DNA of 64,000 nt, from NCBI GenBank assembly GCA_963817685.1, contig CAWFPN010000022.1:40197-104196 (forward strand). The letters run 5' to 3'. This DNA comes from an uncultured Verrucomicrobiae bacterium (GTDB lineage: Bacteria; Verrucomicrobiota; Verrucomicrobiia; Palsa-1439). Numbering within the stretch: position 1 is the stretch's first letter; each line of letters begins with the position of its first letter. Positions 32,442 through 54,412 of the stretch are shown here, one piece after another. The notes beneath the pieces are model-generated. The model did not search any database. It saw only the letters and a list, made by a program, of their open reading frames with translations, and was not told where the DNA came from. The translations under genes were made by a program, and so were the position numbers.

Positions 32442-32457
32442 AGCACTGCCGATGCCA
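32442..32457 (-). promoter_or_regulatory. sigma54 (-24/-12) promoter of the hypB-F-C-D-E-nifJ operon
   Basis: Minus strand reads TGGCATC-GGCA-GTGCT (GG-N10-GC), ending 20 bp upstream of hypB. Confidence 0.75.
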
Positions 32458-32537
32458 CGGCGGTTGACACATTTACAAGTCATTGTGGCTGTGGTTGTTA
32501 CTCGTTTGACTGGTAGGAAGTCGATTGTCTGAGACAA

Positions 32538-32580
32538 CGACATCATGTCACAGCACAATGGGTCACTGGACAAGTTGTCA
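32538..32580. promoter_or_regulatory. Tandem palindromic enhancer (UAS) pair
   Basis: CGACATCATGTCA (32538-50) and GGACAAGTTGTCA (32568-80), 30 bp apart, about 80-125 bp upstream of the sigma54 site. Confidence 0.75.
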
Positions 32581-32637
32581 ATCGGCCTGTTCGGCGGGTT
32601 ATGACGACGTTTTCGCCTCACTTGAGGCGGGGGGAGA

Positions 32638-34050
32638 TTATTTGCGTTTGGCGGCGCCGCTGGCGTAGGCGGCGGCCTCGACGGCGCGGGCGACGCGGCG
32701 GGCGACCTGTTTGTTGAACACGCTGGGAATGATGTATTCCTCGCTCAACTCGTCCGGTGCGATGCAACCGGCGATGGCTTTGGCGGCCGCGAGTTTCATC
32801 GATTCGTTGATGTCGGTCGCGTGCGCATCGAGCGCGCCGCGGAAAATGCCGGGGAAGGCGAGGACGTTGTTGATCTGGTTGGGGTAATCGCTTCGTCCGG
32901 TGGCGATGATCCGCGCATAGGGCTCGGCGTCTTCCGGGGCGATCTCCGGCGTCGGGTTGGCCAGGGCGAACACGATGGGGTCCTTCGCCATTTTTTTCAA
33001 TGCCGCGACGGGAAACACGTCGGGACCGCTGACACCGATAAACAGGTTTGCCCCGCGCGCGGCGTCCAGGATCGACCCGGAACGGTTTTGGGGGTTGGTA
33101 TGTTCGGCCAGCCAGGCTTTGCTGAAATCGAGGTCGGGCAGCCGTTTCCGGCAGACAATCCCTTTGCGGTCGCAACAAATGATGTGGCGGGCGCCGGCGG
33201 ACTGCAGCATTTTCGTGATGGCGACGCCCGCGGCGCCGGCGCCGACGATGAGGATTTTGACGGTGCTGAGTTTCTTTTTGAGGATCTTGAGCGCGTTCAA
33301 TGCGGCGGCCAGCACGACAACGGCGGTGCCGTGCTGGTCGTCGTGGAACACGGGGATGTCCAGTTCCTTTTTCAGCCGTTGTTCGACCTCGAAACAGCGC
33401 GGGGCGCTGATGTCTTCGAGATTGATCCCGCCGAAGCCGGTGGAAATCCATTTTACCGCGGAGATGATCTCCTCGACGTTCTGGGTCTGGAGGCAAATCG
33501 GGTAGGCGTCGATGCCACCGAACTCCTTGAAGAGCATGGCTTTGCCTTCCATGACGGGCATGGCGGCTTCCGGGCCGATATTGCCCAGGCCGAGCACGGC
33601 GGACCCGTCGCTGACGACGGCGACGGAGTTGTGCTTGATGGTCAGGGAGCCGGCTTTGCGTTTGTCTTCGGCGATGGCCAGGCAGACCCGGGCGACACCC
33701 GGCGTGTAGGCCATCGACAGCGTGTCGCGCGTGGTCAGGGGCACTTTGTTTTGGATGCTGATCTTGCCGCCGAGGTGCATCAGGAACACGCGGTCGGAGA
33801 CGTTGAGCACGGTGACGCCGTTGAGGCGTTTCACGGCGTTGACAATCGATTTGGCGTGCGCGTCGTCGCGGGCGCTGACCGTCAGGTCGCGCACTTTGAA
33901 CTCGCGGTCGGCGCGCACCACGTCCACCGCGCCCGGATCGCCTTGCTGGCGCGCGATGACGTGCAGGAGCCGGGCGAACATGCCCGACACATTCTTGATG
34001 CGCAAGCGCATCGTAAAACTATAACTGACGCTCGGCGATTTCTGGCTCAT
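32638..34050 (-). CDS. NAD(P)-dependent malic enzyme with N-terminal ACT domain
   Basis: ACT-like N-terminus; [62 protein letters not shown]. Confidence 0.93.
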
Positions 34051-34084
34051 GATGCGACCCACCTTGGGGATTCCCCCCGTTCCG

Positions 34085-34459
34085 TCAGCCCGCGCAGGCG
34101 GCTGCCGGCACAGTTGGCGCGGCCAATTCAACAGTCGTCAACTGCAGTTCATCCCCGGAGAGTAGCGCGGCTTTCAGCGAATGGCAACGGGGACATTCAA
34201 ACCAGTTCTGTTCCACGGGAAACACCAGGCGGCAGACGTCGCAGCGGGCGGAGGCGTCGCATTTCTCGATGGCCAGCGTGGAATGTTCCAGCGGCGTTCC
34301 GTTGACCGCCGCGTCATAACAAAACCGCAGCATCTCCGGTTCGATCTGGCGCAGCCGGCCGACGCGCACGCCGACGGTCCGCACTCGCGCGCCGGGATGA
34401 GCGCGCAACTGCTCGTCGACCAACTCGATCAACGCTTCGACGATGGACATCTCATGCAT
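34085..34459 (-). CDS. hypA: Nickel chaperone HypA
   Basis: MHEMSI, CDVC, CPRC. Confidence 0.95.
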   Translation of the reverse strand: MHEMSIVEALIELVDEQLRAHPGARVRTVGVRVGRLRQIEPEMLRFCYDAAVNGTPLEHSTLAIEKCDASARCDVCRLVFPVEQNWFECPRCHSLKAALLSGDELQLTTVELAAPTVPAAACAG

Positions 34460-34931
34460 GGCCGGCCCCGCTGGGGATGTTGCTCCGTGCCTGCAGGGAC
34501 AGAACCAATCGCGTGACTTGCCTGACCACGTCAATGGCCGCCAGTTCCGTGGCGGGCGATAAGGCGGTCCCGAAATTGAAATTCTCCCCGCGAATGCTGA
34601 ACAACGCCGCCCGGGGCAGGCGGTGATACAACGTCTGGCTCAACGCCAGCAGATCGCCGGGCGTGAAATAATGCGTCACCGCATGGCTTTGCAGCGACGG
34701 CGTGACTTCCCGGCGGGTGACGGGTTGCGGACTCTGCGCGGTTGCGGCGTCCACGAACACAATCAGGTCGTAGTGGCTGATGGACTCGGCGAGTTCGACT
34801 TCGAGCTGCTGGGTGATCAGGAACTCGGTGTTGGCCAGGCCTGCCTTCTCCAATTGTTCGACGACAAACCAGCCCGCGCCGTCGTCGGAGCGGCTGCGGT
34901 TCCCATAGCCGATGACGAGCACCTGCTTCAC
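34452..34931 (-). CDS. Hydrogenase maturation protease (HoxW-like)
   Basis: LVIGYGNRSRSDDGAG, VFVDA, conserved His (VTHYF). Confidence 0.9.
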   Translation of the reverse strand: MKQVLVIGYGNRSRSDDGAGWFVVEQLEKAGLANTEFLITQQLEVELAESISHYDLIVFVDAATAQSPQPVTRREVTPSLQSHAVTHYFTPGDLLALSQTLYHRLPRAALFSIRGENFNFGTALSPATELAAIDVVRQVTRLVLSLQARSNIPSGAGHA

Positions 34932-36377
34932 TTAAGCGCCTCCGTCGCGCTGCAACGTCTGCAGCAGGTTGCCTTGTGCGTCGAGCAGGTCCACCAGCAG
35001 CGGCATCTGGCCGACCGCGTGCGTCGAGCAGGACAAGCAGGGATCATAGCAGCGAATCGCCGCCTCGACGCGGTTTAACATTCCCTCCTGCAACTGATGG
35101 GACTTCACGTATTTTTCAGCGACGGCCTTGACGGCGCGGTTCATGGCGAGGTTGTTGTGGCCGGTGGCGACGATCAGGTTCACCTTCTCAACGCGCCCGT
35201 GCTCGTCCACCCAATAATGATGGAACAAGGTGCCGCGCGGCGCCTCGATCACGCCCACACCCTGCTCGTTGGCCGGGGTGGCGTTGACCACAATCTCCGT
35301 GCCGCAAATAGCGGGGTCTTCCAGCAATTGCTGGATGCGCTCCAGCGCGCACACGATCTCGATCAACCGCGCCCAGTGATAGTAAAACGAGCTGTGCCGC
35401 GGCGGGATGCGCGGTGTGCGCCACTCCTGCAACTCCGCGTCCGCCAGCGGAGTGGAAATCCGGTCCACTACGTTCAACCGCGCCAGCGGGCCGACGCGAT
35501 ACAGGCCGTCGGGATAGCCGAGTGACTTGATGAACGGGAATTTCAGGTACGACCAGTCCTCCGTCGTCTCGGCAATCACGTCAAGGTAGTCGGCCGGTTT
35601 GACCTGGTCGGCGATGACGTTGCCTGTTGTATCGCAGAAGCGCAACTGGCCGTCGTAATGTTCCAGCGAGCCGTCGGCCCGCACCAGCCCCATGAAGCTG
35701 GAGTCGAACGACGCGAATTCCTCGACCTCCCGCAAATTGTCCCGTTGATATTTCTTCAACAATTCGAGCGCGAACTGCGCATGCTGCATCGCTTCCGGCA
35801 GGCCCGCCAGCATCGCTTCGCGGTCGGCGGCGGCCAGCGCCTTGTTAACGCCGCCGGGCACGGGGAAGTCCGCGTGGATCTTGCGGCCGCCCGTGCGCTT
35901 GATGACTTCCTGGCCGAACTGGCGCAGCCGGATTCCGCGCCGGGCAATGTCGGGATGTTGCTGGATCAGGCCCATCACGTTGCGCAACGCCGGGTTGCTG
36001 TCGAAGCCAAGCAGCAAATCCGGGGCGCTGAGATGGAAGAAACTCAAGGCATGCGACTGGGTGATCTGTCCCATGTGCAGCAACTCGCGCAACAGTTTCG
36101 CCGTGCGCGGAATATCGACGCCGAGAATCGCATCGCAGGCCTTCGCGCTGGCCAGCAGATGGCTCACGGGGCAGATGCCGCAGATGCGCGCGGTGATTTG
36201 CGGCATCTCGGCGAAAAACCTGCCTTCGCAGAATTTTTCAAACCCGCGGAATTCGACCACGTGGAACCGCGTGTCCGCCACGTTGCCCGCGTCGTCGAGG
36301 TGGATGGTGATTTTCGCGTGCCCCTCGATGCGGGTCACGGGATTGATCGTAATCGTCTTATTGTTGGTCTCAGTCAT
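34932..36377 (-). CDS. hoxH: Group 3 [NiFe]-hydrogenase large subunit (HoxH/HydL-like)
   Basis: PVTRIEGH, L1 [16 protein letters not shown]2 [10 protein letters not shown] plus a cleavable C-terminal extension. Confidence 0.95.
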
Positions 36378-36916
36378 AACGCATGTTGGTTGTATCCCAT
36401 TGCGGCGCGCGGCCCGCCAGCAACTCGGTCAGCGCGTACCAGATCGCGTCGGCATCCGGCGGACAGCCGGGAATATGGGCGTCCACCTTCACAAATTCCT
36501 GGATCGGCCGCACCTTGGCCAGCAGCTTCGGCACTTCGGGTGCGTGCGGCACTTCGCCCACCTGGGTGCTTTCCGTTTCGACATAACCCGCGCTCGAGCA
36601 CGTCCTGCAGCTTCTGGCAATTGCGCAGGGCCGGGATGTTGCCCGAGATCGCGCAATCCCCGAGCGCGATGAGCACTTTGCATTGCGCCCGCATTGTGCG
36701 CAACACGTGTTCGTTCTCCTCGTTGCAGACGGCGCCCTCAACGATGCCCACGTCCACCGGCGGGATTTCCTTCACGTCGGTGATCGGGCTGGCGGTGAAC
36801 TCGACCAGCTTCGCCAGGTCGATCAGACGCTCGTCCAGGTCCAGAAACGACATGTGGCAGCCCGAACAACCGCCCAGCCACGCCGTCGCCACTTTGATTT
36901 TCGGTTTGTCGCTCAT
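36370..36916 (-). CDS. hoxY: [NiFe]-hydrogenase small subunit (HoxY/HydS-like, single FeS cluster; frameshift near 36588)
   Basis: [20 protein letters not shown] in one frame; IPGCPP in the next frame. Confidence 0.9.
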
Positions 36917-38736
36917 GTAAAAATGGTCTCCAGAATGGCCGCGTCCTCGCGCGCCTGGCCGTGCGGGGGCAGGGCCGCGCGCAACGGCAGGACCCGTCCT
37001 TCGAAGTTCGTGGTGGAACCGTTTTTCTCCGACCAGACCGTCGATGGCAGCACCACCCGGGCAACGTCTGTCAGGGCCGATTGGTAGGCGGCCTGCACGA
37101 CGACGCAATCGATCTGCTCCAGCATCGCGCGCACGTGCCGTTCTTTCAGGATCTGCGCACCGCCGGCAGACTCGTCACCGGCGACGATCTGCAGGAAATT
37201 CAGCGGCTGCACGCCCAGCCACGTCGAGATGTCCTCGACGGCTTCGATCCCGGCGGCCGCCAGGGCGAGACTGTTGGTGCCCGTGGGCAACTGGATCGGC
37301 GCCAGCATCGCGCCTCCGTTGCCGCCGGCGGCGAGCGTCTCGATGAGCCGGTCGAGAATTGTGATCCCGACCGGCGTCATCGCGGTCGGCCCATAGATCA
37401 ATACGGGCCGCTTCGTCTGGGACAGCACCTCACCCAGGTGGTTCCAGAATTTTCGTTCCAGGCTGACGACTGGCGCGGAAATATCGGCGTAGGTGTCGAG
37501 GTCGCCCCGGCGCGATTCGAGGACCACGAGCTTGGCGCCGCGTTTGCGCACCGCCGTGCGGATCTTCGCCGCCACCACCCCGTGCGTGCGGCTTGGATCG
37601 GCGCCGATCAGGATGATCGCGTCGGCGTCCTCCAGCCGCCGCAAACTGTCGGGCGAAAACTCCGGTGTGCCGCACAACGCCGCCTCCTTGTCCGCCACGA
37701 ACATGCCGATGCGGTCGAAGTGGACGCCGATTGTCTGCAGCGTGCCGATCGTCTGATTCGTCACCCGCGGTGAAATCAACAGCGCTGTTTCCCAATCAAT
37801 CGCCTCGCGGATCGCCTGGCGCACGACGCCCAGCGCTTCGTCCCAGGTGGCCGGTTTCAGTTTGCCGCCCTGGCGCACCAGCGGCCCCAAAATGCGCCGG
37901 CGCGGTTCGGCCCAGGTGCCGTAACGGCCTTTGACGCAAAGATGGCCGCGATTCACGTCCGACGCGGGGTCGCCAAACACGTCGACGACGCGGTTGTCTT
38001 TCGTGTACACGACCAGTCCGCACCCGACCGGGCACTCGATGCACGTGGTCCGGGTCTGCTGGCATTTGGCGAGCGGGCCGTGAAACGCCGCCGCCTTGTC
38101 GAACAACGCCCCGGTCGGACAGGCCGCGACGCACGCGCCGCAGAGCGTGCAGGAGGTGGACGCGCCGAAGGTGCTGTTCAAATCGATGATGATCTGGTTC
38201 TTCACGCCGCGGTAACCGATGTCGAGGGTGTGGACGCCTTCGATCTCGTCGCAGGTGCGGACGCAGCGCGTGCAGAGAATGCAGCGGTTGTGGTCCAGCC
38301 CGAAATACTTGCCCGAGACGTCCTGCGGCAGCACCGGGTAGAGATAGGGATACCGGATCGCGTCGATGCCGGCCTTGTAGCCCTGTTGTTGCAGGTCGCA
38401 ATCGCCCTTGTTCATCGGGCAGATCGGGCAGAAATGGTTGCGTTCGCTGAAGAGCAACTCCAGCGTCAGCCGGCGCAACTGTTGCAGGCGCGGGCTGTTG
38501 GTGGTGATCGTGTTGCCGTCCACGGCGGGTGTCGCGCACGAAGGAACGACCTTGGGACTGCCCTTGATTTCCACGATGCACATGCGGCAGCCGCCCCATG
38601 GCGTGAGGTGTTTCATGTAGCACAGCGTGGGGATTTCGATGCCGTTGGCTTGGGCGATTTGCAAAATGGTCTGGCCCTGCGCGCCCTTGCACGGTTTGTC
38701 ATCAATCGTCAGGGTGATTTCCTTGGGAGCGATCAT
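36913..38736 (-). CDS. HoxU-like FeS subunit fused to a cofactor-less FdhF/NuoG-like domain (HydA of HydABCSL type), 607 aa
   Basis: PTLC..GGCRMC..PSC [2Fe-2S]; NHFCPIC..DC; CILCTRCVRTC; CTLCGACVAACP; CIECPVGC..LCVKGR; degenerate molybdopterin-oxidoreductase-like C-terminus (VVLPSTVWSEKNGSTTNFEGR); no H-cluster motifs. Confidence 0.85.
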   Translation of the reverse strand: MIAPKEITLTIDDKPCKGAQGQTILQIAQANGIEIPTLCYMKHLTPWGGCRMCIVEIKGSPKVVPSCATPAVDGNTITTNSPRLQQLRRLTLELLFSERNHFCPICPMNKGDCDLQQQGYKAGIDAIRYPYLYPVLPQDVSGKYFGLDHNRCILCTRCVRTCDEIEGVHTLDIGYRGVKNQIIIDLNSTFGASTSCTLCGACVAACPTGALFDKAAAFHGPLAKCQQTRTTCIECPVGCGLVVYTKDNRVVDVFGDPASDVNRGHLCVKGRYGTWAEPRRRILGPLVRQGGKLKPATWDEALGVVRQAIREAIDWETALLISPRVTNQTIGTLQTIGVHFDRIGMFVADKEAALCGTPEFSPDSLRRLEDADAIILIGADPSRTHGVVAAKIRTAVRKRGAKLVVLESRRGDLDTYADISAPVVSLERKFWNHLGEVLSQTKRPVLIYGPTAMTPVGITILDRLIETLAAGGNGGAMLAPIQLPTGTNSLALAAAGIEAVEDISTWLGVQPLNFLQIVAGDESAGGAQILKERHVRAMLEQIDCVVVQAAYQSALTDVARVVLPSTVWSEKNGSTTNFEGRVLPLRAALPPHGQAREDAAILETIFT

Positions 38737-40586
38737 GCCGGCACCCCTCCTGCCATGGGTTCTTCCTGCGGTTCCTGTGTGTGCACCCGGCCGGGCGACG
38801 TCTTCTTGACCGCGCCGAACAGGCAGGCGTCGAAGCAGGCCCCGCACTGGATGCATTTCGAGGGATCCAGGTGGAATTTCTTCTGGCCTTCGACCTTGTG
38901 AATGGTCTGCGCCGCGCAGGCGCGCGCACACAGCGAACAACCTTTGCAAAGCGGCTGGTCGATCTCAAAATGCAGCAGGGACCGGCAGACGCGCGCGGGG
39001 CAACGCCGGTCGAGAATGTGCGCCTCGTACTCGTCGCGGAAATAGCGCAACGTGGTCAGCACCGGATTCGGCGCCGTCTGGCCAAGCCCGCACAGGCTGG
39101 TGTCCTTGACCATCGCCGCGAGATCTTCGAGCTTCCGAATGTCATCCATCTCGCCCTGGCCCGAGCAGATGCGGTCAAGGATGTTCAACATCTGGCGGGT
39201 CCCGACGCGGCAGGGAGGGCATTTGCCGCACGATTCATCGCAGCAGAATTCCATGAAGAACCGCGCCACGTCCACCATGCACGAATCCTCGTCCATCACC
39301 ACCAGGCCGCCCGACCCCATGATCGAGCCCAGCTGTTGCAGCGTCTCGTACTCGATCGGCGTATCGAGGTGCTGTTCGGGGATCACGCCGCCCGATGGGC
39401 CGCCGGTCTGCACCGCCTTGAATTTCTTGCCGTTGGGAATGCCGCCGCCGACGCTGAAAATCATCTCGCGCAACGTGGTGCCGTAGGGCATCTCCGCCAC
39501 GCCGGTGTTGTTGATCTTGCCGGCCAGGCAGAAGACCTTTGTCCCCTTGGTCCGTTCCGTGCCAATGGCGGCGAACCACTTCGCGCCTTTGAGGATGATC
39601 GGCCGGATCGTGGCCCAGGTCTCCACATTATTGATATTGGTCGGCTTGCCCCACAGCCCGCGTTGGGCCGGGAAGGGCGGACGCGGTTGCGGCTGGCCGC
39701 GGCGGCCTTCGACGCTGCGCATCAGCGCCGTTTCTTCGCCACAGACGAATGCGCCCGCGCCGATGCGGACCTCCACGTCGAAATCAAATCCGCTCTCGAA
39801 CAAATTTTTGCCGAGCAACCCGTACTTGTAGGCCTGTTCGATGGCGATGTGCAGGCGTTTAACGGCCAGGCCGTACTCGGCCCGGATATAAATGAACCCG
39901 CGGCTGGCCCCCATCGCGCGCGCGCCGATGGCCATGCCCTCGAGCACGCTGTGCGGGTCGCCTTCGAGCACCGAACGGTTCATAAACGCGCCGGGATCGC
40001 CCTCGTCGGCGTTGCAGACGACGTATTTGGGAAATTCGGGCGCCTGGCGCATGATCTCCCACTTCTTGCCCGTCGGGAACCCCGCGCCGCCGCGGCCACG
40101 CAAGCCGCTGGCCTTGATCTCTGCGATGATCTGCTCGGGTGTCATCGACGTCAGCACCTTGCCCAGCGCGGTGTACCCGTCCCGCGCGATGTACTCCTCG
40201 ATGTTCTCGGGATTGATAATGCCGCAGTTGTCGCGCACGATGCGCATCTGGCGGTTGAAAAAGGTGAAATCGGCCTGTGTCAGCACCGCGTTCTGCGTCT
40301 GCGGGTCCAGCGGCAGCAGTTTCGCGTACGGCCGGCCCTTCAGGAAATGCTCCTCCACCAGCTTCGGCACCTCGGCAGCCAGCACGTTCCTGTAAAACGT
40401 GCCGTCGGGATGCACCAACGATACCGGACCGAGGTCGCACCGGCCCATGCAGCCGGTCTCGACGATTTCGATTTCGTCTTCGAGCCCGCGCTTCTTCAAT
40501 TCCGCCCGCAACGCGTCACGCGTGGCGAGACTGCCGCAGCTGGTGCAGCCCGTGCCCGTGCAAACCAGGAAATGCGTGCGAATCAT
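38733..40586 (-). CDS. NADH/FMN-binding subunit, HydB/HndC/NuoF-type with C-terminal 2x[4Fe-4S]
   Basis: N-terminal CTGTGC..CMGRC; GLRGRGGAGFPTG; NADEGDPGAFM; GGPSGG; ESCGKCPPCR; HILDRRCPARVC; CKGCSLCARAC; CIQCGACFDAC. Confidence 0.93.
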   Translation of the reverse strand: MIRTHFLVCTGTGCTSCGSLATRDALRAELKKRGLEDEIEIVETGCMGRCDLGPVSLVHPDGTFYRNVLAAEVPKLVEEHFLKGRPYAKLLPLDPQTQNAVLTQADFTFFNRQMRIVRDNCGIINPENIEEYIARDGYTALGKVLTSMTPEQIIAEIKASGLRGRGGAGFPTGKKWEIMRQAPEFPKYVVCNADEGDPGAFMNRSVLEGDPHSVLEGMAIGARAMGASRGFIYIRAEYGLAVKRLHIAIEQAYKYGLLGKNLFESGFDFDVEVRIGAGAFVCGEETALMRSVEGRRGQPQPRPPFPAQRGLWGKPTNINNVETWATIRPIILKGAKWFAAIGTERTKGTKVFCLAGKINNTGVAEMPYGTTLREMIFSVGGGIPNGKKFKAVQTGGPSGGVIPEQHLDTPIEYETLQQLGSIMGSGGLVVMDEDSCMVDVARFFMEFCCDESCGKCPPCRVGTRQMLNILDRICSGQGEMDDIRKLEDLAAMVKDTSLCGLGQTAPNPVLTTLRYFRDEYEAHILDRRCPARVCRSLLHFEIDQPLCKGCSLCARACAAQTIHKVEGQKKFHLDPSKCIQCGACFDACLFGAVKKTSPGRVHTQEPQEEPMAGGVPA

Positions 40587-40964
40587 TTATTTCTGCTCCG
40601 GTTCCTTGATCTTGCCGACGGCCAGGCCGTCGACGACCTTGCCCTTTTCCAGGTGCTCCGAGACGATCTGGCGCGCGGCGGCGGCATTGACCTTCGCGTA
40701 GGTGACCTTTTCCCCCGACGCGTCCTCCACCCGGATCACCGGCTCGGCATCGACCAGCCCGATCTCGCCCGTGACGGCGACTTCCACGTTCTCGATGCCG
40801 CGTTTGTCGAGTTCATCGAGCATGGAGGTCATCACGTCCCGCGCTCCGGCGGCGATGCCGCTGGTGCCCATGCTGAACACCACGCGGTACTTCTTGTTGC
40901 CTTCACGCAGCGCGACGTGACGTTGCGCCTTTTCTTTGAGTTTTTTGAGTTCGTCGAGGTTCAT
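40587..40964 (-). CDS. Thioredoxin-like ferredoxin homolog (HydD/HndB-like) lacking all cysteines
   Basis: MGTSGIAAGARDV..TGEIGLVDAEP..VTYAKV..IVSEHL matches the family pattern MxTCGIAAGA..TGCIGxC..EP, with Cys replaced. Confidence 0.8.
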   Translation of the reverse strand: MNLDELKKLKEKAQRHVALREGNKKYRVVFSMGTSGIAAGARDVMTSMLDELDKRGIENVEVAVTGEIGLVDAEPVIRVEDASGEKVTYAKVNAAAARQIVSEHLEKGKVVDGLAVGKIKEPEQK

Positions 40965-41424
40965 CGTGTCTCCCTTCCTGTGAGCTGAAATGAAACGTCT
41001 GGCCGTTGGAACGGTAGTGCAGTTGCACGTCCACATCCTGGCGGGCGCACAACGTGAGAATGGTGGCATTGAGGTCGCCCAGCGGCGGCCGGTCGATGTG
41101 CGAATAGCGCATCGAGGCCGTCACCGACGTGCCCCGGCCCGGCGCGGAGCGGACGTGGAACGTTCCGCCGCACATTTCGGAAGTCTGCCGCAAAAACGCC
41201 AGCCCCAGGCCGATGGCTTTCAATCGGCTTTTCTTGCTGGTCCGATTAAAGTTGAGCACCTCGCGCAATGTCCGGGCGTCCATGCCCTTGCCGTCGTCGC
41301 GGATGCGGATGATCAGCCAGTCGCGCCGGATGTCTTCGATCACCACGACCTGCAGCGTCTTCGCCCCGGCGGCCAGTGAATTCATGCCGATGTCCAGGAT
41401 GTGCAGCGAGAGTTCTTCAAGCAT
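40903..41424 (-). CDS. Stand-alone histidine-kinase-like ATPase (HATPase_c); 3' end uncertain
   Basis: ELSLHILDIGMNS, IRDDGKGMD, IGLGL, SHIDRPPLGD, as in hyd/hnd operon accessory genes. Confidence 0.85.
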   Translation of the reverse strand: MLEELSLHILDIGMNSLAAGAKTLQVVVIEDIRRDWLIIRIRDDGKGMDARTLREVLNFNRTSKKSRLKAIGLGLAFLRQTSEMCGGTFHVRSAPGRGTSVTASMRYSHIDRPPLGDLNATILTLCARQDVDVQLHYRSNGQTFHFSSQEGRHDEPRRTQKTQRKGATSRRAA

Positions 41425-41995
41425 ACTTCTTCAACTCCTTCTGGCAAAAACGCGGGATCTTGTCGGGCGTGAGCTTGCCGTACACGTCGTCGCCGACGGT
41501 GATGGCCGGCGCCAGCGCGCAGGCGCCGATGCAGCGGGCCGTTTGCAGGCTGAACAACCCGTCCTTGGTCGTTTCGCCGTGGGCGATGCCGAGTTGCTGG
41601 CCGAGCCGTTCGACGACCGTGGCGGCCCCGCGCACGTGGCAGGTCGTGCCCGTGCAGACCATGATCTGGTATTTGCCGCGCGGCACGACAGAGAAGAAAT
41701 TGTAGAATGTAGTTACTCCATAGACGTGGGCCAGCGGCAGCTTCATGGCCGTGGCGACGTAACGCAGCACGTCGGGCGCTAGATAACCGAACGTGTGCTG
41801 CGCGGCGTGCAACACCTGGATCAGCGCCGTCGGTTCGTAGTTGTAATGCTGCAGCGTCTGGTCGAGCGACGCGAAGCGTTGGTCGCCGCTCGGATGGTGC
41901 GGCAGCATCGGCGCGGTGGACGGGTTCGCGGTGAGCGTGCCCGGCTGCGGCGTGATCGATGCCGTGGCGCTGGCGGGTGTCGTGGTCTCACTCAT
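41417..41995 (-). CDS. [2Fe-2S] subunit HydC/HndA/HoxE/NuoE-type
   Basis: LIQVLHAAQ..FGYL, VYGVTTFY, CTGTTCHVRG, RCIGACALAP. Confidence 0.92.
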   Translation of the reverse strand: MSETTTPASATASITPQPGTLTANPSTAPMLPHHPSGDQRFASLDQTLQHYNYEPTALIQVLHAAQHTFGYLAPDVLRYVATAMKLPLAHVYGVTTFYNFFSVVPRGKYQIMVCTGTTCHVRGAATVVERLGQQLGIAHGETTKDGLFSLQTARCIGACALAPAITVGDDVYGKLTPDKIPRFCQKELKKYA

Positions 41996-42353
41996 GGTCG
42001 TTCTCCCCTCGCAGTCCGGCCTCCCAGAGTTTGCCCGCCGCTTCGTAAGTGGTCAGCGGTGTGGTCAGCAGCGCGATTCCTTCCTGCTCCGCCTCCGCGA
42101 CGATCTCCGCCTCCGGTTTTCGTCCGCAGGTGAAGAGCACCGCCGTGATGTCCTTCGTGGCCGCGACGGAGACGACGTTGCGGTGCGTCTGGATGGTGAC
42201 CCAGAGCATGCCCGGCCCCGCGTGCGCCAGCACGTCGCTGAGCAGGTCCGAGATGTAGCAGCCCGTCAGCAACTCCGGCACGGCATCGGTCAGCGGTTCG
42301 GCCTGCAGCATCGCGATCAGCGTCCTGGACTTGACCGGCAATTGTATTTTCAT
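41988..42353 (-). CDS. DRTGG-domain protein
   Basis: GCYISDLLSDVLA, LWVTIQTHRNVVSVA, TTYEAAGKL. Confidence 0.85.
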   Translation of the reverse strand: MKIQLPVKSRTLIAMLQAEPLTDAVPELLTGCYISDLLSDVLAHAGPGMLWVTIQTHRNVVSVAATKDITAVLFTCGRKPEAEIVAEAEQEGIALLTTPLTTYEAAGKLWEAGLRGENDHE

Positions 42354-43275
42354 GAGGGTGCTCCCGCTTGGCGCAGGTAAATTTCCGAGCGCAACCGCGT
42401 TCCGCGTTTGCCGTCCGAGGTAATGGTCAGCTTGTCCGAGCAGCGCTTGATGTTGGGCAATCCCATGCCCGCGCCGAAGCCGAGTTCACGCGGCAGGCGG
42501 CCCGCGGTGGACCAGCCTTCCTGCATGGCCTGGTCGATGTTCTCGATGCCCGGCCCGGTGTCGATCGCCTCGATCACCACCTTGTCGGGACCGATGGTGG
42601 CGATGATCTCGCCGCCGAGCGAATGGATGATGATGTTCGTCTCCGCTTCGTAGGCGACGACGGCGGCCCGGCGGCGGATTTCCGGGTCGATGCCGCGGTC
42701 GCGCAGACCTGGCGCATGCGCTGCGAGACTTTGCCCGCGCTGTCGTAATCGCCCGTGCGCACGTGCGCGCGGACGACCACGCGTTGGGCGGCTTCGTCAT
42801 CGGCCCGGGAGGCGCGCAGCACGGCTTCGTGGGCCAGCGCTTCCTCGGCGCGCCGTTCGAGGTGATGCATCAGGCAGCCGGTGATGTCGCCGCGGGTAAT
42901 GACGCCGACCAGCCGGTCGTTGCCGTCGAGCACGGGAAAACGGCCGAACTCATGCCGGTCGAATTCCGCCACGGCGCGCACCAGCGAAAAATGGTCGCGG
43001 AGCGCGACACGACGTTGCGGGCCATGCGTTGTTCGGCGGGCTCATCGATATAGCCCTTGTCAAGCGCGCGGATGATGTCTTCGATGCTGACGATGCCGAG
43101 CAAGTGTTTCGCCGTCGATCATGGGCACCCCGGAGAACGCGGCGCGCTTTCATCAGCATGCTGGATCGTGCGCAGCGAATCGGACGGAGCTGGCGGTGAT
43201 CGGCGGACTTGCTCATGGCGTCGCGCACGCGCAATTCATAGACGAGGATCTGGGCGACCGAGATTTTTCGCGCAT
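42350..43275 (-). CDS. CBS-domain plus RsbT/RsbW-like Ser/Thr kinase (several frameshifts)
   Basis: Fragments: LRVRDAM, GIVSIEDII, GRFPVLD..LVGVITRGDI; DTGPGIENIDQAMQEGWST..GFGAGMGLPNIKRCSD. Confidence 0.8.
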
Positions 43276-43295
43276 CGCCCGCGCCGGCGGATTGC

Positions 43296-45541
43296 TCAGA
43301 TGGCGGGCGCGGTGGTGCATCGCGGGTCTCCTAGGGTCGGCGGCGCCTCCGCGGCGAGCGCCATGCGGACGTCGGCCACGTGTGCGCCTTTGCCCTGCGC
43401 ATGGACGATGAGCGGGTTGATGTCCAGTTCGGCGATCTCGGGAAAATCGATGACGAGTTGCGAAAGACGCTCCAGACAATCGGCAATGGCATCGATATCG
43501 GCCGGCGGCTGACCGCGGAACCTCTCGAACACTTTGGCCGCGCGGATCGAGTTGATCATGTTGCGGGCGCCGAGTTCGCGGATCGGCGCCAGGCGGAAAC
43601 TGACGTCCTTGAGCACTTCGACGTACGTGCCGCCCATGCCGAACATGATGATGTGGCCGAAGGCGGGGTCCTTGCTGATGCCCGAGGATCACCTCGACGC
43701 CGCGTGCCGGCCATGGCTTCGACTTCCACGCCGAGGAGCCGCGCACTGGGTAGTTTTTGTTTCACCCCGTTTGTGATTTTTTCATAACCCAGCACGGGCT
43801 TCCTCGGCGTGGAAATATTCAGCAGCACGCCGCCGACATCGACCTTGTGGACGACGTCGGGCGAAGCAATTTTCATGGCGACGGGTCCGCCGATCTTTTC
43901 GAACAACGCGGCGGCCTCGTCTTCGCTCTTGGCCAAAGCGTGTTGGAGCACGCGGGAAACCATAGGCCTTCAACACGGCCAGCGCTTCGGCTTCGGGCAG
44001 GAACGTGCGGCCTTCGCCGCGGACCTTGGCGAAAATCTCGCGCACGGCGTTCTTGATCGACCTCGAAATGGCGCTCCTGGGTGCGCGGGCGCGTGCAGCC
44101 ATTGCGTGTAGCGGCACATGGCGCCCGAGCGAGCGGGACGCGTTCTCGGGAAACTCGTAGTTGGGGACGCCGTATTGCTCGAGGATGCGAACGCCGGCGG
44201 ACACGTCCACGTGGCCGAGGAACGAGGCGAGCACCGGTTTCTTGCTGGGCGGCGCAATCTCGCCGATCGTGCCGCGCGATGGCCTCGATTTCGGTCATGG
44301 ACTGCGGCGTGAGCAGAACCACCAGCCCGTCGACGTTCGGGTCGCCGAGCACGGCTTCGAGAGCGGCCGTCGTAGCGATCGCAGCGTGGCGTCGCCGATG
44401 ACGTCGACGGGATTAGAAAAGTTCGCGGTCGGAGGCAGCTTCGCCTTGAGGGACTCGAGTGTCTCGGGTCGCAGTTTGGCGAGCTCGAGTCCATAACGGA
44501 TGGCGGCATCGGTGGCCATGATGCCGGGTCCACCCGCGTTGGTGACGATGGCGAAGCGGTTGCCTTTGGGCAACGGCTGGCGTGAGAACCCGACCGCGAA
44601 GTCGAAGAGTTCTTCCACAGTGTCAACGCGCAGGATGCCGGCCTGCGCGAAAATGGCGTCGTAGACGGCGTCGCTGCCGGCCAGCGCGCCGGTGTGGGAA
44701 CGGGCGGCGGCGGCGCCTTGCTGGGTCCGGCCGGATTTGATGGCCAGGATCGGTTTGCGATGGGCGAGTTCGCCCGGTGATCTCGCGAGCCAGATCAATG
44801 AAGGCCCGGCCGTCGGCCAGCGTTTCCAGGTACATCAAGATCACGTCGGTGCGTCGTCGGTCGGCCAGATAACGCAGCAAGTCCATGTTCGGTCGACGTC
44901 GGCCTTGTTGCCGACGCTGATGAATTTCGAAAAACCGATGTCGCGGCCCCGGGCGTAGTCCAGGATGCCCGCGCAGAGCGCGCCGCTTTGGGACACGAAA
45001 GCGATGTTGCCGTGTTTGGGCATGCGCGCGGGCGAAACTGGCGTTGAGCATGATGTCGGCGATCGGTGTTGATCACGCCCAGGCAGTTCGGGCCGACCAG
45101 CGGCATGTGATAACGCTGGCCAATGGCGATGATGCGTTGTTCCAGTGCGGCGCCTTCCGGGCCGATTTCCTTGAATCCCGCGGTCACGATCACCGCTCCG
45201 CGCACGCCTTTCTGGCCGCATTCCTCCAGCACTTCCGGCACAACGTTGGCGGGGACGATGATCAGGGCCAGGTCGATTTCCTGCGGGATGGCGGAGATGC
45301 TGGTGTAGGAGTGCACGCCGCAAATGGACGGGGCCTTCGGATTGACGGGATAGAGTGTGCCGCAGTAACCGCCCATCAGGATGTTCTTGAAAATGGCGTT
45401 GCCGACGCTGCCTTCGCGGTTCGAGGCGCCGATGACGGCGATGGATTTCGGCGAGAAGATTGGCGCGAGCCGATCCAACTCAGCGGCAGGCGCGGCTGCT
45501 TGCTTAGATGTCTTTTCCACTGGTATTGCGCATGTAGTCAT
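43296..45541 (-). CDS. Acetate-CoA ligase (ADP-forming), fused alpha/beta (many frameshifts)
   Basis: PKSIAVIGAS, YPVNP, GPNCLG, SQSGAL, ARSHTGALAGSD, TNAGGPG, NPVDV, KIASPDVVHKVDVGGV, FGMGG, ELDINPL across frames. Confidence 0.88.
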
Positions 45542-45645: not shown

Positions 45646-45718
45646 ACAGATGTTGTCCTCTTCGACGGGAAAGCAGGACAAAGTGTCACCAGTGCTGGAA
45701 AATCCGGACAGTTTGTCA
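45646..45718. promoter_or_regulatory. Tandem palindromic UAS pair plus an in-phase half site
   Basis: GGACAAAGTGTCA (45676-88) and GGACAGTTTGTCA (45706-18), 30 bp apart; TGTCC half-site at 45654-58, a further 30 bp away. Confidence 0.75.
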
Positions 45719-48876: not shown

Positions 48877-48898
48877 GAACGCCTAACAAAACCGTGCT

Positions 48899-49892: not shown

Positions 49893-50171
49893 GCCAACGT
49901 TTAAGCAGCCGCTGTGCTGGACATGCCAGCCTCCCGCCGCCTCGCGCGTTCCCCCCGCGCCCCACACGCAGCAAACCCCTGCTACCATTGCCTGATCTCA
50001 CTGTTCTGTCCCCGCCAGCGTCCCCGAAGAAAATTCCACCCCGGCCCGACCGCCCCCCCGCTCCTGTCACGATTTATCCACCGTGGCCAAAGAACCACGG
50101 CCCGTGGGCCGGATTAGGCCGGAGGGGAACGATTGGCCACAGATGCACACAGATGGGGCACGGATTTCCGT

Positions 50172-50475: not shown

Positions 50476-50642
50476 GGTGTCCGGAGCTGCCGGGGCAAAA
50501 GGGCGGGGACCGTTCCCGGCAGGCGCGGCTTGCCGGGAGGCTCGCCCTCCAGACGGCCCGGCAAGGTGTGCCAATTTGGCGCAGTTTCCGTACGCGGGAG
50601 GCTTCCAGCGTGGTCAAACCTTCAGCCGCCGAAATGGCCCAA

Positions 50643-50828
50643 AAGTCCAGGCTAGTCAAACCTTGTCAAACCTAGTCAAACCAAGTCCGACCTTAAATTT
50701 TCGGGCCGGATCCGCCTTCGCCAAGGCTACGGCGGGCACGACGGCGGACAAGGTGACCGTCCGTGCAGTCCGTGTCCGTCCTGATCCGACCCAATACGGC
50801 CTAATACGACCTAATACGGCCTTAAATT
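50643..50828 (+). repeat. Composite 10-bp-period repeat element with a nested 42-bp hairpin insert
   Basis: 5 x TAGTCAAACC-like + TTAAATT; insert 50708-50749; GTCCGT linker; 4 x AATACGGCCT-like + TAAATT; inverted copy at 62207-62352. Confidence 0.9.
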
Positions 50829-50857
50829 GTCCAAGGAGGGGGGTGGGGGCTGGGGGA

Positions 50858-50886
50858 TTGACAATTTGTCAGGGGGTACATAGGCT
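50858..50886 (+). promoter_or_regulatory. sigma70 promoter overlapped by a perfect TGACA-N3-TGTCA operator
   Basis: TTGACA(50858)-17 bp-TAGGCT(50881); TGACAATTTGTCA at 50859-50871. Confidence 0.75.
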
Positions 50887-50896
50887 GGGGGTGGCA

Positions 50897-52441
50897 ATGG
50901 CACCTTCCGAGCGTGAGACGCGGTTGCGGTTTTTGAGCCTGACGGAGCATGACCAGGCTTTGCTCAAGGCTTTAAGGCCCTTGCTGGAGCAGCACGTCAC
51001 GGCCATCGAGGACGCGTTTTACGAGCATCTGCTGCAGTTCCCAGAAGCAGCGCAATTGCTGCGCGACCGCACCACGGTCGAGCGGCTGAAACACTTGCAG
51101 CGCGAATACCTGCTGCGGCTTACGGACGGCGTGTACGACGACAAGTATTTCGCCGACCGGTTGCGCATCGGCCAGGCCCACGAACGCGTCGGGTTGTCGC
51201 CCCGCTGGTATCTGCTGGCCTACAGCCATTACTTCAAACTGATCACCCCGCTGATCCGCGCCCATTACGCCAACGATCCCGCCCGCGCCGACGATTCGGT
51301 GCTGGCCCTGGAAAAGGTGTTCATGCTCGACGCCTCGCTGGCGATGGACGCCTACATCGAGAGCGACCGTTACCGCCGCCTGCGGCAATTGGAAAGCATC
51401 GTCAACGATTCCGCCGACGTCATCTTCGCCCTGGACAACGAACTGCGGTTCCGCTCCTGGAACCGCGCGGCGGAACGCATCTTCGGCTGGCGCGAAGCGG
51501 ATGTCCTCGGCAACTCATTCACCATGCTGATGCCGCCGGAGCTGGTCCAGGCCGGCGAGATGGAACGCATCGATCGCCACGTGGACAAGGAAGGCTATTA
51601 CCATTTCGAGACCGTGCGGCTGGCCAAGGACGGCCGCCGCGTGCCGGTCGAGGTGACGGTGTCGCTGCTGCGCGATCCGCAGGGCAACATGATCGGGCGG
51701 TCGGCCATCCTGCGCGACGTCACCGAACGCAAGGCCCTGGAAGAGGAAAAACTGCGGGCGGAACGGCTGGCGGTGATCGGCACAATGTCGGCCCGGCTGG
51801 CCCACGAGATCCGCAATCCGCTCAGCTCGATCACGCTGAACATCGACCTGGTCGGCGACGAGATTGGCACGTTGGCGAAGGACAAACAGAGCGACGCCGA
51901 GGAAGCGCGATCGCTGCTGCGGTCCATCGACTCCGAAGTGCGCCGCATCCAGCGGGTGACGGAGGATTATCTGCAATTCGCGCGCCTGCCCAAACTGCAC
52001 CACGACATGGTCTCGCTCAACGAGATCCTCAGCCAGGGCGTTGCCTTCATGCAATCGTTGTTCGAAGCCACCGGCGTGACCGTGGAGACGGGCCTCGACC
52101 CGTCCGTGCCGTCGATCCACGCCGACGAAGGCCAACTCTGGCAGGCGATCCTGAACCTGATCCGCAACGCGCTGGAAGCCATGCCCAAGGGCGGCGCGCT
52201 CACGATCCGCACGTCGTTCGAGAAATCGACCATCGTCCTCACCGTCGCCGACACGGGCAAGGGGATGACCGAGCACGAGCGCGAACAGATTTTCAAACCG
52301 TTTTTCAGCACCAAGGTCGGCGGCACGGGCCTGGGATTGCCGCTCACCCAACAAATCATCACCGAACACGGCGGCCGCGTCCAATGCGAAAGCGTGCAAG
52401 ACCGCGGCACCACGTTTGTGATAGAATTGCCGGTGAAATAG
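50897..52441 (+). CDS. Globin-coupled (protoglobin/HemAT-type) PAS histidine kinase
   Basis: Globin: AFYEHL (B10 Tyr), RIGQAHERVGL (proximal His); PAS: WNRAAERIFG..KDG; H-box LAHEIRNPL; NLIRNALEA, DTGKGM, GTGLGL. Confidence 0.92.
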   Translation: MAPSERETRLRFLSLTEHDQALLKALRPLLEQHVTAIEDAFYEHLLQFPEAAQLLRDRTTVERLKHLQREYLLRLTDGVYDDKYFADRLRIGQAHERVGLSPRWYLLAYSHYFKLITPLIRAHYANDPARADDSVLALEKVFMLDASLAMDAYIESDRYRRLRQLESIVNDSADVIFALDNELRFRSWNRAAERIFGWREADVLGNSFTMLMPPELVQAGEMERIDRHVDKEGYYHFETVRLAKDGRRVPVEVTVSLLRDPQGNMIGRSAILRDVTERKALEEEKLRAERLAVIGTMSARLAHEIRNPLSSITLNIDLVGDEIGTLAKDKQSDAEEARSLLRSIDSEVRRIQRVTEDYLQFARLPKLHHDMVSLNEILSQGVAFMQSLFEATGVTVETGLDPSVPSIHADEGQLWQAILNLIRNALEAMPKGGALTIRTSFEKSTIVLTVADTGKGMTEHEREQIFKPFFSTKVGGTGLGLPLTQQIITEHGGRVQCESVQDRGTTFVIELPVK

Positions 52442-52451
52442 GGAGCAGAGA

Positions 52452-53816
52452 ATGGCCAGACGCGCGGACATATTGTTGGTCGACGACGAGGAGGCGCTGT
52501 GCACCGCCGCGGAGAAGATCCTCGTCAAGGAAGGCTACCGCGTCACCACGGTCAACACCGCCCAGGACGGCCTGGCGAGGTTTGAAACCGAAGGCGCCGA
52601 CCTGTTGATCACCGATTTGATGTTGCCGGACATGGACGGCATTTCACTGTTGAAGCGCGCCAAGGAACTGCGGCCGACCGTCGAGGTGATTGTCATCACC
52701 GGCCACGGCACGGTCGAGAAAGCCGTCGAAGCGATGCGGCTGGGCGCCTATGATTTCATCGAGAAACCGCTCGACCGGGCCGCGTTGATGAAGGCCGTGA
52801 GCAAGGCGGTGGAGAAACAACGCCTGGCGGCGGAAAACCGGGAACTGCGCGAACAACTCCAGCAGCAGCGCGGCGAAGACGCCTTGATCGGCGCCAGCGC
52901 CCCGATGGTCGCGCTGAAGAAATTGGTCCGCCAGATCGCGACCACCGATGTCACCATTCTCATCCAGGGCGAAAGCGGTTCGGGCAAGGAAGTCGTCGCC
53001 GACGTGATCCACAGCCTCAGCCCGCGCGCCGACAAGGCGATTGTGAAGATCAGTTGCGCGGCCATTCCGGAAACGCTGCTGGAAAGCGAACTGTTCGGCT
53101 ACGAGCGCGGCGCGTTCACCGGCGCGGGAAACACCAAGCAGGGAAAATTCGAGCTGGCCGACGGCGGCACGCTGTTCCTGGACGAGATCGCCGAGATGAG
53201 CACGCAGTTGCAGGCCAAACTGCTGCGGGTCCTGCAGGACGGACGGTTCCAGCGGCTCGGCAGCACGCGGGACATCCAGGTCGACGTGCGCGTCATCAGC
53301 GCCACGCACGTGAACATCCCGCAGGCCATCGCGGAAAACAAATTCCGCGAAGACCTCTATTACCGGCTCAACGTCGTCCACGTCGGACTGCCGGCCTTGC
53401 GCGAGCATCCGGAGGATATCCCGTTGCTGGCCGATCATTTCCTGAAGAAATACGCGGCCCGGATGCAGAAGGACGTGCGCGGCATCGAGCCGGCCGCCAT
53501 CGAGCAGTTGCTGGCCCATTCCTGGCCAGGCAACGTGCGGGAATTGGAGAACTCCATGCAACGCGCCCTGGCGGTGTGCACGGACGACACGATCCGCAGT
53601 TTTCATCTCATCGCGCCCATCGCCAAAGGCCAGGCAGGCGGCGGGCCGACCGGCCCGACGGTGACGATCCCGATTGGACTGCCCTTGGGCGAGGCGGAAG
53701 AGCGCATCATCTCCGAGACATTGAACCAATGCGGCGGCGACAAGGAGAAGGCGGCCCGCCTGCTGGGGATCTCCTCGCGGACCCTCTACCGACGCTACTC
53801 GAAGGACGAACCCTGA
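52452..53816 (+). CDS. sigma54-dependent response regulator (NtrC/AtoC family)
   Basis: REC (LVDDE, ITDL), [33 protein letters not shown], Fis-type [14 protein letters not shown]. Confidence 0.96.
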
Positions 53817-53828
53817 CGGCGAGTCGAG

Positions 53829-53871
53829 TGCCAAATTGTCGGTTTCGCCCCGGTTCGCTGACATTGTGACT
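53829..53871. promoter_or_regulatory. Tandem degenerate UAS pair
   Basis: TGCCAAATTGTCG (53829-41) and TGACATTGTGACT (53859-71), 30 bp apart. Confidence 0.65.
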
Positions 53872-53952
53872 GGCCTGCGCCGCGGCAGGCGGTCGGCGAT
53901 GTTCTTTCCAATCATCCGCCTTTTCAACGCGTTATGACTTTGGCGATTGTCG

Positions 53953-53968
53953 TGGCATCCGTGGTGCT
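53953..53968 (+). promoter_or_regulatory. sigma54 promoter of the stand-alone receiver gene
   Basis: TGGCATC-CGTG-GTGCT (GG-N10-GC), almost identical to the hypB promoter. Confidence 0.75.
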
Positions 53969-53980
53969 AGCGCATAAGCC

Positions 53981-54412
53981 ATGGCCACCAATCTGCCAGC
54001 CGCCAAGGGCAAGATCATCCTGCTCGTCGACGATGATACGGAACTGCTCAAGGCGTTGACGAAGGTCCTGGAGAAGGAGAACTACGAGGTGGTCGCGCAA
54101 CCCGACGCAGTCAGCGCGATCAAGCTCGTGAATTCGTCACAGCAGAAGTTCGACCTCGTCATCACCGACGTGTCCATGCCCGGCATGAAGGGGACGACCT
54201 TCCTGGCGGCCGTGAAGACGGCGTTTCCCGCCGTGCCCGTGATCGTGATCACCGGCTTCGGCGATTGGGGCCAGTACATGGAGGCCCTGCGCGAAGGCGC
54301 TTTTGAGTACCTGAGCAAACCCCTCGACAAGTCCGCCTTGTTGTCCACCGTGCAGCGCGCGCTCATCAACGGGACGAAGCCCAACAATCACAAAACGGCC
54401 GCTCCCAAGTAG
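53981..54412 (+). CDS. Single-domain response regulator
   Basis: LLVDDD, VITDVSMPG, VITGFG, YLSKP; no output domain. Confidence 0.92.
   Translation: MATNLPAAKGKIILLVDDDTELLKALTKVLEKENYEVVAQPDAVSAIKLVNSSQQKFDLVITDVSMPGMKGTTFLAAVKTAFPAVPVIVITGFGDWGQYMEALREGAFEYLSKPLDKSALLSTVQRALINGTKPNNHKTAAPK

Follow-up and report, generated by a model that had tools for sequence, protein, structure and literature searches.

Paired palindromic sites at sigma54 promoters of Verrucomicrobiae and their association with a globin-PAS kinase/NtrC operon

We analysed a stretch of 64,000 nucleotides (nt), referred to as the window, from an uncultured Verrucomicrobiae bacterium (assembly GCA_963817685.1, contig CAWFPN010000022.1). 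The window corresponds to C22:40197-104196, where C22 is its contig, and the genome comprises 3.99 Mb in 29 contigs with 61% G+C. It contains a two-gene operon encoding a globin-PAS histidine kinase and an NtrC-family activator, followed by a gene for a single-domain receiver. We describe here the sigma54 promoters of this locus, the pairs of palindromes that precede them, and the circuit that they may form with the kinase and the activator.

Promoters and paired sites around the kinase operon

Genes in the window were named using Pfam and NCBIfam; the names given in an earlier reading of the sequence (the original prediction) were all upheld by Pfam. Four transcription units were thereby assigned around the regulator locus, i.e. 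hyp-PFOR (pyruvate:ferredoxin oxidoreductase), acd-hydrogenase, kinase-NtrC and receiver:

50897..52441, + strand: globin (protoglobin)-PAS-HisKA-HATPase sensor kinase, 514 amino acids (aa), by Pfam
52452..53816, + strand: NtrC-family enhancer-binding response regulator, 454 aa, 10 base pairs (bp) after the kinase gene
53981..54412, + strand: single-domain receiver, 143 aa, by Pfam
22456..32421, - strand: first target operon, hypB-hypF-(small gene)-hypD-hypE-PFOR-dihydroorotate-dehydrogenase-like, by Pfam and NCBIfam; PFOR is in two pieces in this assembly (26303-27067 and 23487-26249, - strand)
32638..45541, - strand: second target operon, by Pfam and NCBIfam, with the genes in the order acd (ADP-forming acetyl-CoA synthetase), CBS, DRTGG, HoxE-like, HATPase, NuoF-like, HoxU/NuoG-like, [NiFe] small and large subunits, maturation protease, hypA and malic enzyme

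Both target operons and the receiver gene are preceded by a GG-N10-GC promoter and, further upstream, by two palindromes. The kinase operon has a promoter of another type, overlapped by a single palindrome. These elements are:

32443-32457, - strand: sigma54 promoter of hypB, TGGCATCGGCAGTGC, 36 nt before the hypB ATG
45560-45574, - strand: sigma54 promoter of acd, TGGCAAGGCCGCTGC, GG-N10-GC
53953-53967, + strand: sigma54 promoter of the receiver gene, TGGCATCCGTGGTGC, GG-N10-GC
32538..32550: hypB proximal enhancer site, CGACATCATGTCA, 81 nt from TGG, exact GACA-N3-TGTC core
32568..32580: hypB distal enhancer site, GGACAAGTTGTCA, 30 bp from the proximal site, exact core
45676..45688: acd proximal enhancer site, GGACAAAGTGTCA, 102 nt from TGG, exact core
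45706..45718: acd distal enhancer site, GGACAGTTTGTCA, exact core, overlapping the stop codon of the GNAT gene
53829..53841: receiver distal enhancer site, TGCCAAATTGTCG, one mismatch in the 8-base core, outer half degenerate
53859..53871: receiver proximal enhancer site, TGACATTGTGACT, 82 nt from TGG, one mismatch in the 8-base core
32464..32487: third box, conserved and hypB-promoter-specific, with consensus GCAAT-nn-GTTGTCAA-nn-TGTCA, immediately before the -24 element
50858..50886, + strand: putative sigma70-type promoter of the kinase operon, TTGACA-N17-TAGGCT, with TTGACA at 50858-50863
50859-50871: single palindrome, TGACAATTTGTCA, covering the -35 element and spacer of the kinase promoter

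The elements reported in the original prediction were all recovered: the three GG-N10-GC promoters, with coordinates within one base; the palindrome pairs 30 bp apart, those of the receiver gene with one core mismatch in each site; the distance of 81-82 bp between the nearer site and the -24 element at hypB and the receiver gene, measured here as 81 and 82 nt; and the perfect palindrome over the TTGACA of the kinase operon. A consensus scan for sigma70 promoters missed the kinase promoter because its -10 element matches TATAAT at three of six positions; the promoter is a putative one, assigned by conservation only.

We observed that the start codons lie 28-36 nt past the TGG of the -24 element (32421-32457, 45541-45574 and 53953-53983), and that of the kinase about 10 nt beyond its -10 element (50881-50899). 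With predicted leaders of 0-10 nt, the mRNAs would be nearly leaderless.

The sites and promoters are not chance occurrences. The window contains 7 exact cores where 0.89 are expected, a number that none of 100 shuffles got to. Genome-wide there are 68 exact GACA-N3-TGTC cores, and the hypB and acd pairs, each spaced at exactly 30 bp, are the only neighbouring exact pairs up to 200 bp apart. When one mismatch per site was allowed, 7 pairs were counted at a spacing of 30 bp and 4 at 31 bp, with 0-4 at any other spacing between 15 and 59 bp. The string TGG[CT]A-N7-TGC occurs 239 times on both strands of the 3.99 Mb; nevertheless it is found on the correct side, 80-105 bp downstream, of 9 of the 12 pairs spaced at 29-31 bp. 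The pairs without promoter (C18:272403, C20:6763 and C22:52037) lie within or beside coding sequence. Conversely, a promoter-first search of 915 looser strings returned an upstream pair with at most two mismatches in 9 cases and with three mismatches in 2 more, and the downstream control returned none with fewer than four. At the nine promoters of this genome the GG and GC doublets are exactly 10 nt apart on the same strand as the gene (TGGCA-N7-TGC), and the gaps between site and TGG are 80, 80, 81, 81, 82, 83, 89, 102 and 105 nt. The arrangement as a whole is far beyond chance.

The same arrangement was found in relatives. Of 31 genomes sampling the family, 26 have pairs with at most one mismatch per site, and of 47 from the order 40 do; a reversed-pattern control gave none in 46 genomes and one per strand in G000. 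The best locus of each of the 26 pair-positive genomes was inspected, one of these being the window's own hypB locus (L015). A GG-N10-GC promoter lies downstream of the pair in all 26 loci, 24 by the strict pattern and two as CGGCA or GGGCA variants recognised by eye. A count matrix over 29 promoters reads TGGCA-N6-(G)TGCTAA. The gap between proximal site and TGG, measured for 29 pairs in the 26 loci, is 78-83 nt in 13 and 101-104 nt in 12, the remainder being at 34-36 nt (3 pairs) and 90 nt (1 pair); the 21-nt step between the two main classes equals two helical turns. The genes downstream of the relatives' pairs are hypB (9), the CBS-HATPase first gene of the hydrogenase cluster (5), acd (3), GNAT (2), an HMA-domain protein (1) and genes with no family match (5). 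In G005 the pair precedes a short ATP-grasp (acd-like) fragment.

We aligned 10 hypB upstream regions representing 9 genera. Neither palindrome varies among them, nor does the promoter, whose TGGCA and TGC are kept in 10/10, against a mean column identity of 63%. The third box stands out in the same alignment (C115, A116 and T122-G124 invariant) and, by eye, is not conserved before the receiver gene; it could serve a second regulator or give the activator an additional half-site. The same promoter type precedes acd or CBS-HATPase genes in relatives. The sites are conserved upstream of orthologous operons, namely hypB, acd/hydrogenase-cluster and receiver genes across the order, and this conservation spans 14 genera. 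Together, these comparisons support the tandem palindromes as predicted upstream activating sites of sigma54 promoters.

In two relatives (L010, G042:C6; L018, G009:C195), the GNAT gene adjoining acd has a pair of its own at a distance of 34-36 nt from a TGGTA-N7-TGC promoter. In the present genome, the promoter-first scan flagged none ahead of GNAT.

Phyletic distribution of the sites and the proposed circuit

We then compared the distribution of the pairs with that of the kinase/NtrC operon. Of the 47 genomes of the order, 41 encode a kinase or NtrC orthologue. Of these 41, 39 also have the pair, against one of the six without the operon (G005, G008, G010, G017, G020 and G058, of which all except G005 lack the pair). 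The link between the paired sites and this operon, put forward in the original prediction, therefore agrees with the phyletic distribution. Gene order is likewise stable. The kinase and NtrC genes are adjacent in all 14 relatives' loci, and the receiver gene comes next in 9 of the 13 that are readable, each of the 9 having paired sites and a sigma54 promoter before it. When the window's own locus is counted, the pair lies immediately downstream of the NtrC gene in 10/10 receiver loci. In 9/9 relatives the receiver sites are half-degenerate in a like manner (GCCA...TGTC, then GACA...TGAC or TGGC), with spacings of 19 bp in one locus and 31 bp in another. The hexamers of the kinase promoter, TTGACA-N17-TAG(G/T)CT, are kept in 15/15 loci and the full palindrome over them in 9/15; it is absent from the four loci without receiver gene, from L045 and from the truncated L044.

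G026, which belongs to another family and whose NtrC is 66% identical, has GACA-N3-TGTC sites both next to its NtrC gene and ahead of two sigma54 promoters, one of which precedes a receiver gene. There the sites abut, with centres 12 bp apart, about 44 nt before the promoters (L075; G026:C1 10030-10200 and 14110-14280). Its kinase lies in a 751-aa open frame, apparently with a second PAS-like stretch.

The kinase globin matches PF11563 (E 2.8e-42) as well as the structures of HemAT (1or4, 8e-17), the Geobacter globin-coupled sensor GsGCS (2w31, 9e-17) and AfGcHK (5ohe, 1.4e-8). Counting from the printed alignment, Tyr42 and His95 align with HemAT Tyr70 and His123, which we take to be the distal Tyr (B10) and the proximal His (F8), respectively. 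It is the only protoglobin of the genome. The domain architecture of the kinase is common to more than 120 protein clusters at 61% identity or above; those that have a name carry only the labels 'PAS domain S-box' or 'protoglobin domain-containing protein'. In NtrC, Pfam recognises Response_reg (7-116), Sigma54_activat (145-311, E 1.5e-70) and HTH_8 (412-448), and the translation contains GAFTGA. The paired sites have the geometry expected of NtrC-type tandem sites about 80-150 bp upstream, from which binding of the activator is predicted only. Within the genome, the paralogue that best matches the single-domain receiver is the NtrC receiver domain encoded next to it (41% identity, 84 bits, as compared to at most 72 for others); this likeness fits a shared kinase, although it is no proof. 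Compared with NCBIfam equivalogs, namely AtoS/AtoC, ZraS/ZraR, NtrB/NtrC, FixL and FhlA, every score is below the curated cut-off, the best being 264 bits for AtoS (cut-off 646) and 427.8 bits for AtoC (cut-off 714).

Nine genomes encode a paralogous NtrC, 60-65% identical (G006:C21, G019:C4, G026:C7, G042:C4, G046:C34, G050:C38, G051:C35, G054:C47 and G060:C18). In the two that were checked, G019:C4 and G006:C21, it adjoins a kinase matching only the globin-less C-terminal half of the query. No NtrC paralogue of that type and identity was found in the present genome.

Paired-site promoters are not confined to the window. At least nine were found in this genome, six of them besides those of hypB, acd and the receiver gene, plus one weaker candidate:

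C22:104836: NrfH/NapC-like hexahaem cytochrome, just beyond the end of the window
C22:106639: operon for a c554-like cytochrome, ResB, HemA, CcsA, an 11-haem cytochrome and cytochrome b561
C20:11897: operon for two unknown proteins, a GltD-like flavoprotein, cytochrome b and a hexahaem cytochrome c
C20:21184: AhbD-like radical-SAM haem synthase
C10:617168 and C18:249141: two small unknown proteins, each after a paired-site promoter
C22:4764: 3-mismatch candidate before an apparent 2-oxoacid:ferredoxin oxidoreductase, a gene read by eye with no family search

This nine-promoter set looks like a general anaerobic or hypoxic (low-oxygen) energy regulon that goes beyond H2 metabolism. Since its targets have O2-sensitive or O2-independent functions, they were counted in favour of a low-oxygen explanation.

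We consider the following mechanism, taken as a whole, to be probable. The two-gene operon would produce a cytoplasmic globin-PAS histidine kinase, active without O2, and an NtrC-type sigma54 activator. The activator would act on pairs of 13-bp palindromes (TGACA-N3-TGTCG) with centres 30 bp, or about three helical turns, apart, with a phasing of about 80 or 101 nt relative to the TGGCA-N7-TGCTAA promoters downstream. Once phosphorylated, it would induce at least nine low-oxygen operons: the hyp maturation genes with PFOR; acd, the NAD(P)-linked [NiFe] hydrogenase and malic enzyme; multihaem cytochromes, cytochrome c biogenesis with HemA, the cytochrome b/c operon and the AhbD-like O2-independent haem synthase; and probably a 2-oxoacid:ferredoxin oxidoreductase. 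It would also induce the single-domain receiver downstream. The sequence of this receiver is closer to the activator's own receiver domain than that of any other paralogue, so it probably competes for phosphoryl groups, making negative feedback probable. Finally, autorepression is probable through the palindrome that overlies both the -35 hexamer and the spacer of the kinase operon's promoter.

The proposal that the globin kinase switches on both operons and the receiver, made in the original prediction, thus draws strength from the distribution and conservation of the sites. Its scope, fermentative H2 metabolism, was too narrow, as the promoters also cover cytochromes, cytochrome c biogenesis with HemA and the AhbD-like synthase.

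Evidence against the mechanism and competing explanations

Several points weigh against this mechanism. Firstly, in the parts of PMC8697598 and PMC11841059 covered here, AfGcHK and NmpU, the globin kinases that have been characterised, are active in their O2-bound form. A kinase that behaved like them and was wired directly to its activator would induce O2-sensitive enzymes in air; the polarity proposed above would therefore require a hypothetical inversion. Secondly, judged by the E. coli consensus, the kinase promoter has a weak -10 element. Thirdly, the 30-bp pair is missing from two genomes with the operon, G002 (75% complete) and G026, and the related genomes of the comparison are not independent, the losses corresponding to about three or four events (genera g5 and g10; G008 and G058 within g8). 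Fourthly, G005, which has neither kinase nor NtrC (best match 41-42% identity), retains one acd-type pair, one site of which is degenerate (GATA), together with a promoter; unless this pair is a relic, it suggests that some other protein is able to use the site. In addition, the elimination of other activators described below took in enhancer-binding proteins only, not other DNA-binding families. Lastly, NnrS, Cu-oxidase and NirD/L-like genes in the vicinity make NO a possible signal.

The mechanism can also be taken further. The globin-PAS kinase/NtrC pair, acting directly, might be the order's master oxic-anoxic switch, in the role that FNR, ArcAB or FixLJ play elsewhere, with a deoxy-active kinase, a receiver drain and autorepression, and with affinity-graded sites (perfect at hyp and acd, conserved but half-degenerate at the receiver gene) ordering induction. 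We regard this extension as tentative and are inclined to doubt it in full. Crp/Fnr-type HTH matches are present in the genome.

An alternative retains the wiring and the regulon but replaces O2 as the signal by NO or CO at the haem, or by a redox or metabolite cue perceived through the PAS domain. Globin-coupled sensors bind O2, NO and CO alike, and the present kinase has a full PAS domain between its globin and its kinase core. The regulon includes NrfH/NapC-like and c554-like cytochromes, and 3-7 kb downstream of the regulator genes there is a cluster (57466-61480, - strand) of NnrS-like, multicopper-oxidase-type and NirD/L-like (sirohaem decarboxylase) genes, which suggests nitrogen-oxide metabolism and an alternative haem pathway beside the regulon. 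However, neither the genome-wide pair scan nor the promoter scan found a paired site before these genes, and what dominates the regulon is not NO detoxification but generic anaerobic functions (hydrogenase, PFOR, acd and O2-independent haem synthesis). AfGcHK and NmpU, moreover, are treated as O2 sensors in the passages covered of PMC8697598 and PMC11841059. A signal other than O2 is on balance unlikely.

We also asked whether the enhancers, though real, are bound by another regulator, the kinase/NtrC operon being a mere neighbour. The binder could be the sigma54 activator encoded among cytochrome genes at C20:4286-5791, for example, or a protein outside the enhancer-binding family. Two regulon promoters share the 22-kb contig of the C20 activator, which is also missing from the five motif-less genomes tested, and the G005 pair speaks for such a binder too. 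Yet no C20 orthologue was found in 7 motif-positive genomes, which include G011 (6 pairs, 91% complete), G014 and G024. The genome encodes ten enhancer-binding proteins, and the remaining ones all fail the distribution test as well: four have orthologues (68% identity or above) in all three motif-less genomes examined, two more have orthologues in one of these three, and two further ones are present in only 6/31 and 4/31 genomes. The position of the pair right after the NtrC gene in every receiver locus, the palindrome on the NtrC operon's own promoter in 9/15 loci and the retention of the motif next to the NtrC orthologue of G026 likewise favour the operon. At the level of sequence comparison, the data support that the pairs are distributed as the globin-PAS kinase/NtrC operon is, which holds for none of the genome's other enhancer-binding proteins; a different binder is accordingly a rather improbable option.

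That the pairs are chance or repeat-derived and without regulatory function, as three promoter-less pairs out of 12 and a genome full of dispersed short repeats might suggest, has a negligible probability given the spacing peak, promoter association, phasing, reversed-pattern controls and conservation before orthologous genes across 14 genera.

Relation to described systems and further observations

The original prediction knew of no described globin-kinase-sigma54 control of a hydrogenase/PFOR pathway, a claim that overstated the novelty. In NmpRSTU of Myxococcus xanthus, as presented in the portions of PMC11841059 covered here, a globin kinase already acts through a sigma54 NtrC-like activator on a hypoxia regulon via tandem palindromes, NmpR using two GCGCA-N5-TGCGC sites with 14-15 bp between them and controlling its own operons as well. 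As far as those portions go, the two systems are alike in several respects: a protoglobin histidine kinase stands on top (NmpU there, whose homologue in Anaeromyxobacter is AfGcHK) and an NtrC-like sigma54 activator at the bottom; there are two palindromes per promoter, the NmpR sites being 15 bp long with centres also about 29-30 bp apart; the activator acts on its own operons, as is probable here; and among the genes of the low-O2 regulon are one for a CBS-domain protein and others for haem synthesis independent of O2 (HemN there, AhbD-like and HemA here).

They also differ, within the same limits of that source. NmpRSTU is a four-protein relay in which NmpU phosphorylates the hybrid kinase NmpS, turning it off, and NmpS phosphorylates NmpR. 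Here, in contrast, the kinase and activator genes are 10 bp apart and adjacent in all 14 relatives' loci with no hybrid kinase between them, and a PAS domain separates globin and kinase core. The motif is TGACA-N3-TGTCG rather than GCGCA-N5-TGCGC (PMC11841059), and the targets are hydrogenase, PFOR, acd and multihaem cytochromes rather than cbb3 oxidase, universal stress protein and hemerythrin. The lineage is Verrucomicrobiota, whereas NmpRSTU is myxobacterial. The present circuit would thus be a variant of a gas-sensing type so far described only in myxobacteria.

Regarding hydrogenase control by sigma54, PMC12316311 treats Proteobacteria; in the passages covered it makes no link between Verrucomicrobiota and hydrogenase, and 'globin' is absent from them as a term. 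A literature search on globin-coupled kinases with sigma54, NtrC or hydrogenase, and on Verrucomicrobiota protoglobins, returned no description of the present system. The NtrC protein scores 289.9 bits with the NCBIfam FhlA model (labelled FlhA there; cut-off 830), and the kinase 130.7 bits with the FixL model (cut-off 850). FhlA of E. coli and HoxA of Cupriavidus are sigma54 activators with upstream sites that control hydrogenase structural and hyp maturation genes, like the activator proposed here. FhlA responds to formate via GAF domains and is not known to have a receiver domain, and HoxA is under an H2-sensing regulatory hydrogenase with the kinase HoxJ; the input here, by contrast, would be a haem globin kinase. 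In FixL-FixJ and DevS/DosT-DosR, a haem sensor kinase directly phosphorylates a response regulator for microoxic or anoxic respiration genes. Their haem, however, is held in PAS or GAF domains and their regulators are of sigma70 type (FixJ/NarL family), unlike the globin domain and sigma54 activator of the present pair.

If the mechanism is true, a globin sensor would here be connected to sigma54 by a direct two-component link for the first time, and the regulon would be the first of hydrogenase, PFOR and multihaem cytochromes under globin control, extending the lessons from NmpRSTU. The mechanism offers a fully specified, testable circuit for a widespread uncultured lineage, with sensor, activator, 13-bp motif, 30-bp pairing, phasing and at least nine operons. 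The motif could be used to predict fermentation, H2 production or use, and cytochrome respiration by these bacteria in sediments and soils, and the kinase would be a candidate for how a PAS domain may invert a globin signal.

Between the acd promoter and the kinase gene lie cydAB, the GNAT gene and an ACT-domain gene, and no Rfam family matched anywhere in the window at the gathering threshold. The 870-bp non-coding stretch before the kinase promoter (49989-50857) is a mosaic of short dispersed repeats: 50040-50850 gives 118 genome matches at about 30 places, and 10-bp tandem units lie at 50652-50687 and 50793-50822. By eye, the sequence upstream of the relatives' kinase promoters has no such repeats.

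Several conserved genes are interrupted in this assembly. The acd gene (43200-45541) contains short out-of-frame stretches, and carB (7147-8616 and 11391-13289), PFOR (23487-27067) and cydB (47850-49001) are split into pieces. The gene for sigma54 itself, rpoN, is present in one copy (C13:43264-44742) and has a short out-of-frame stretch too; in acd and rpoN, stretches of about 40-50 codons leave the frame and then return. We considered whether acd is a pseudogene or subject to recoding and rejected both, as the out-of-frame runs are brief and regain the frame and the protein around the breaks is 74-100% identical to that of relatives. The same pattern in rpoN, together with the split carB, PFOR and cydB, makes indels of the assembly the more likely cause of these interruptions, and the out-of-frame stretch of rpoN is most likely an assembly error.

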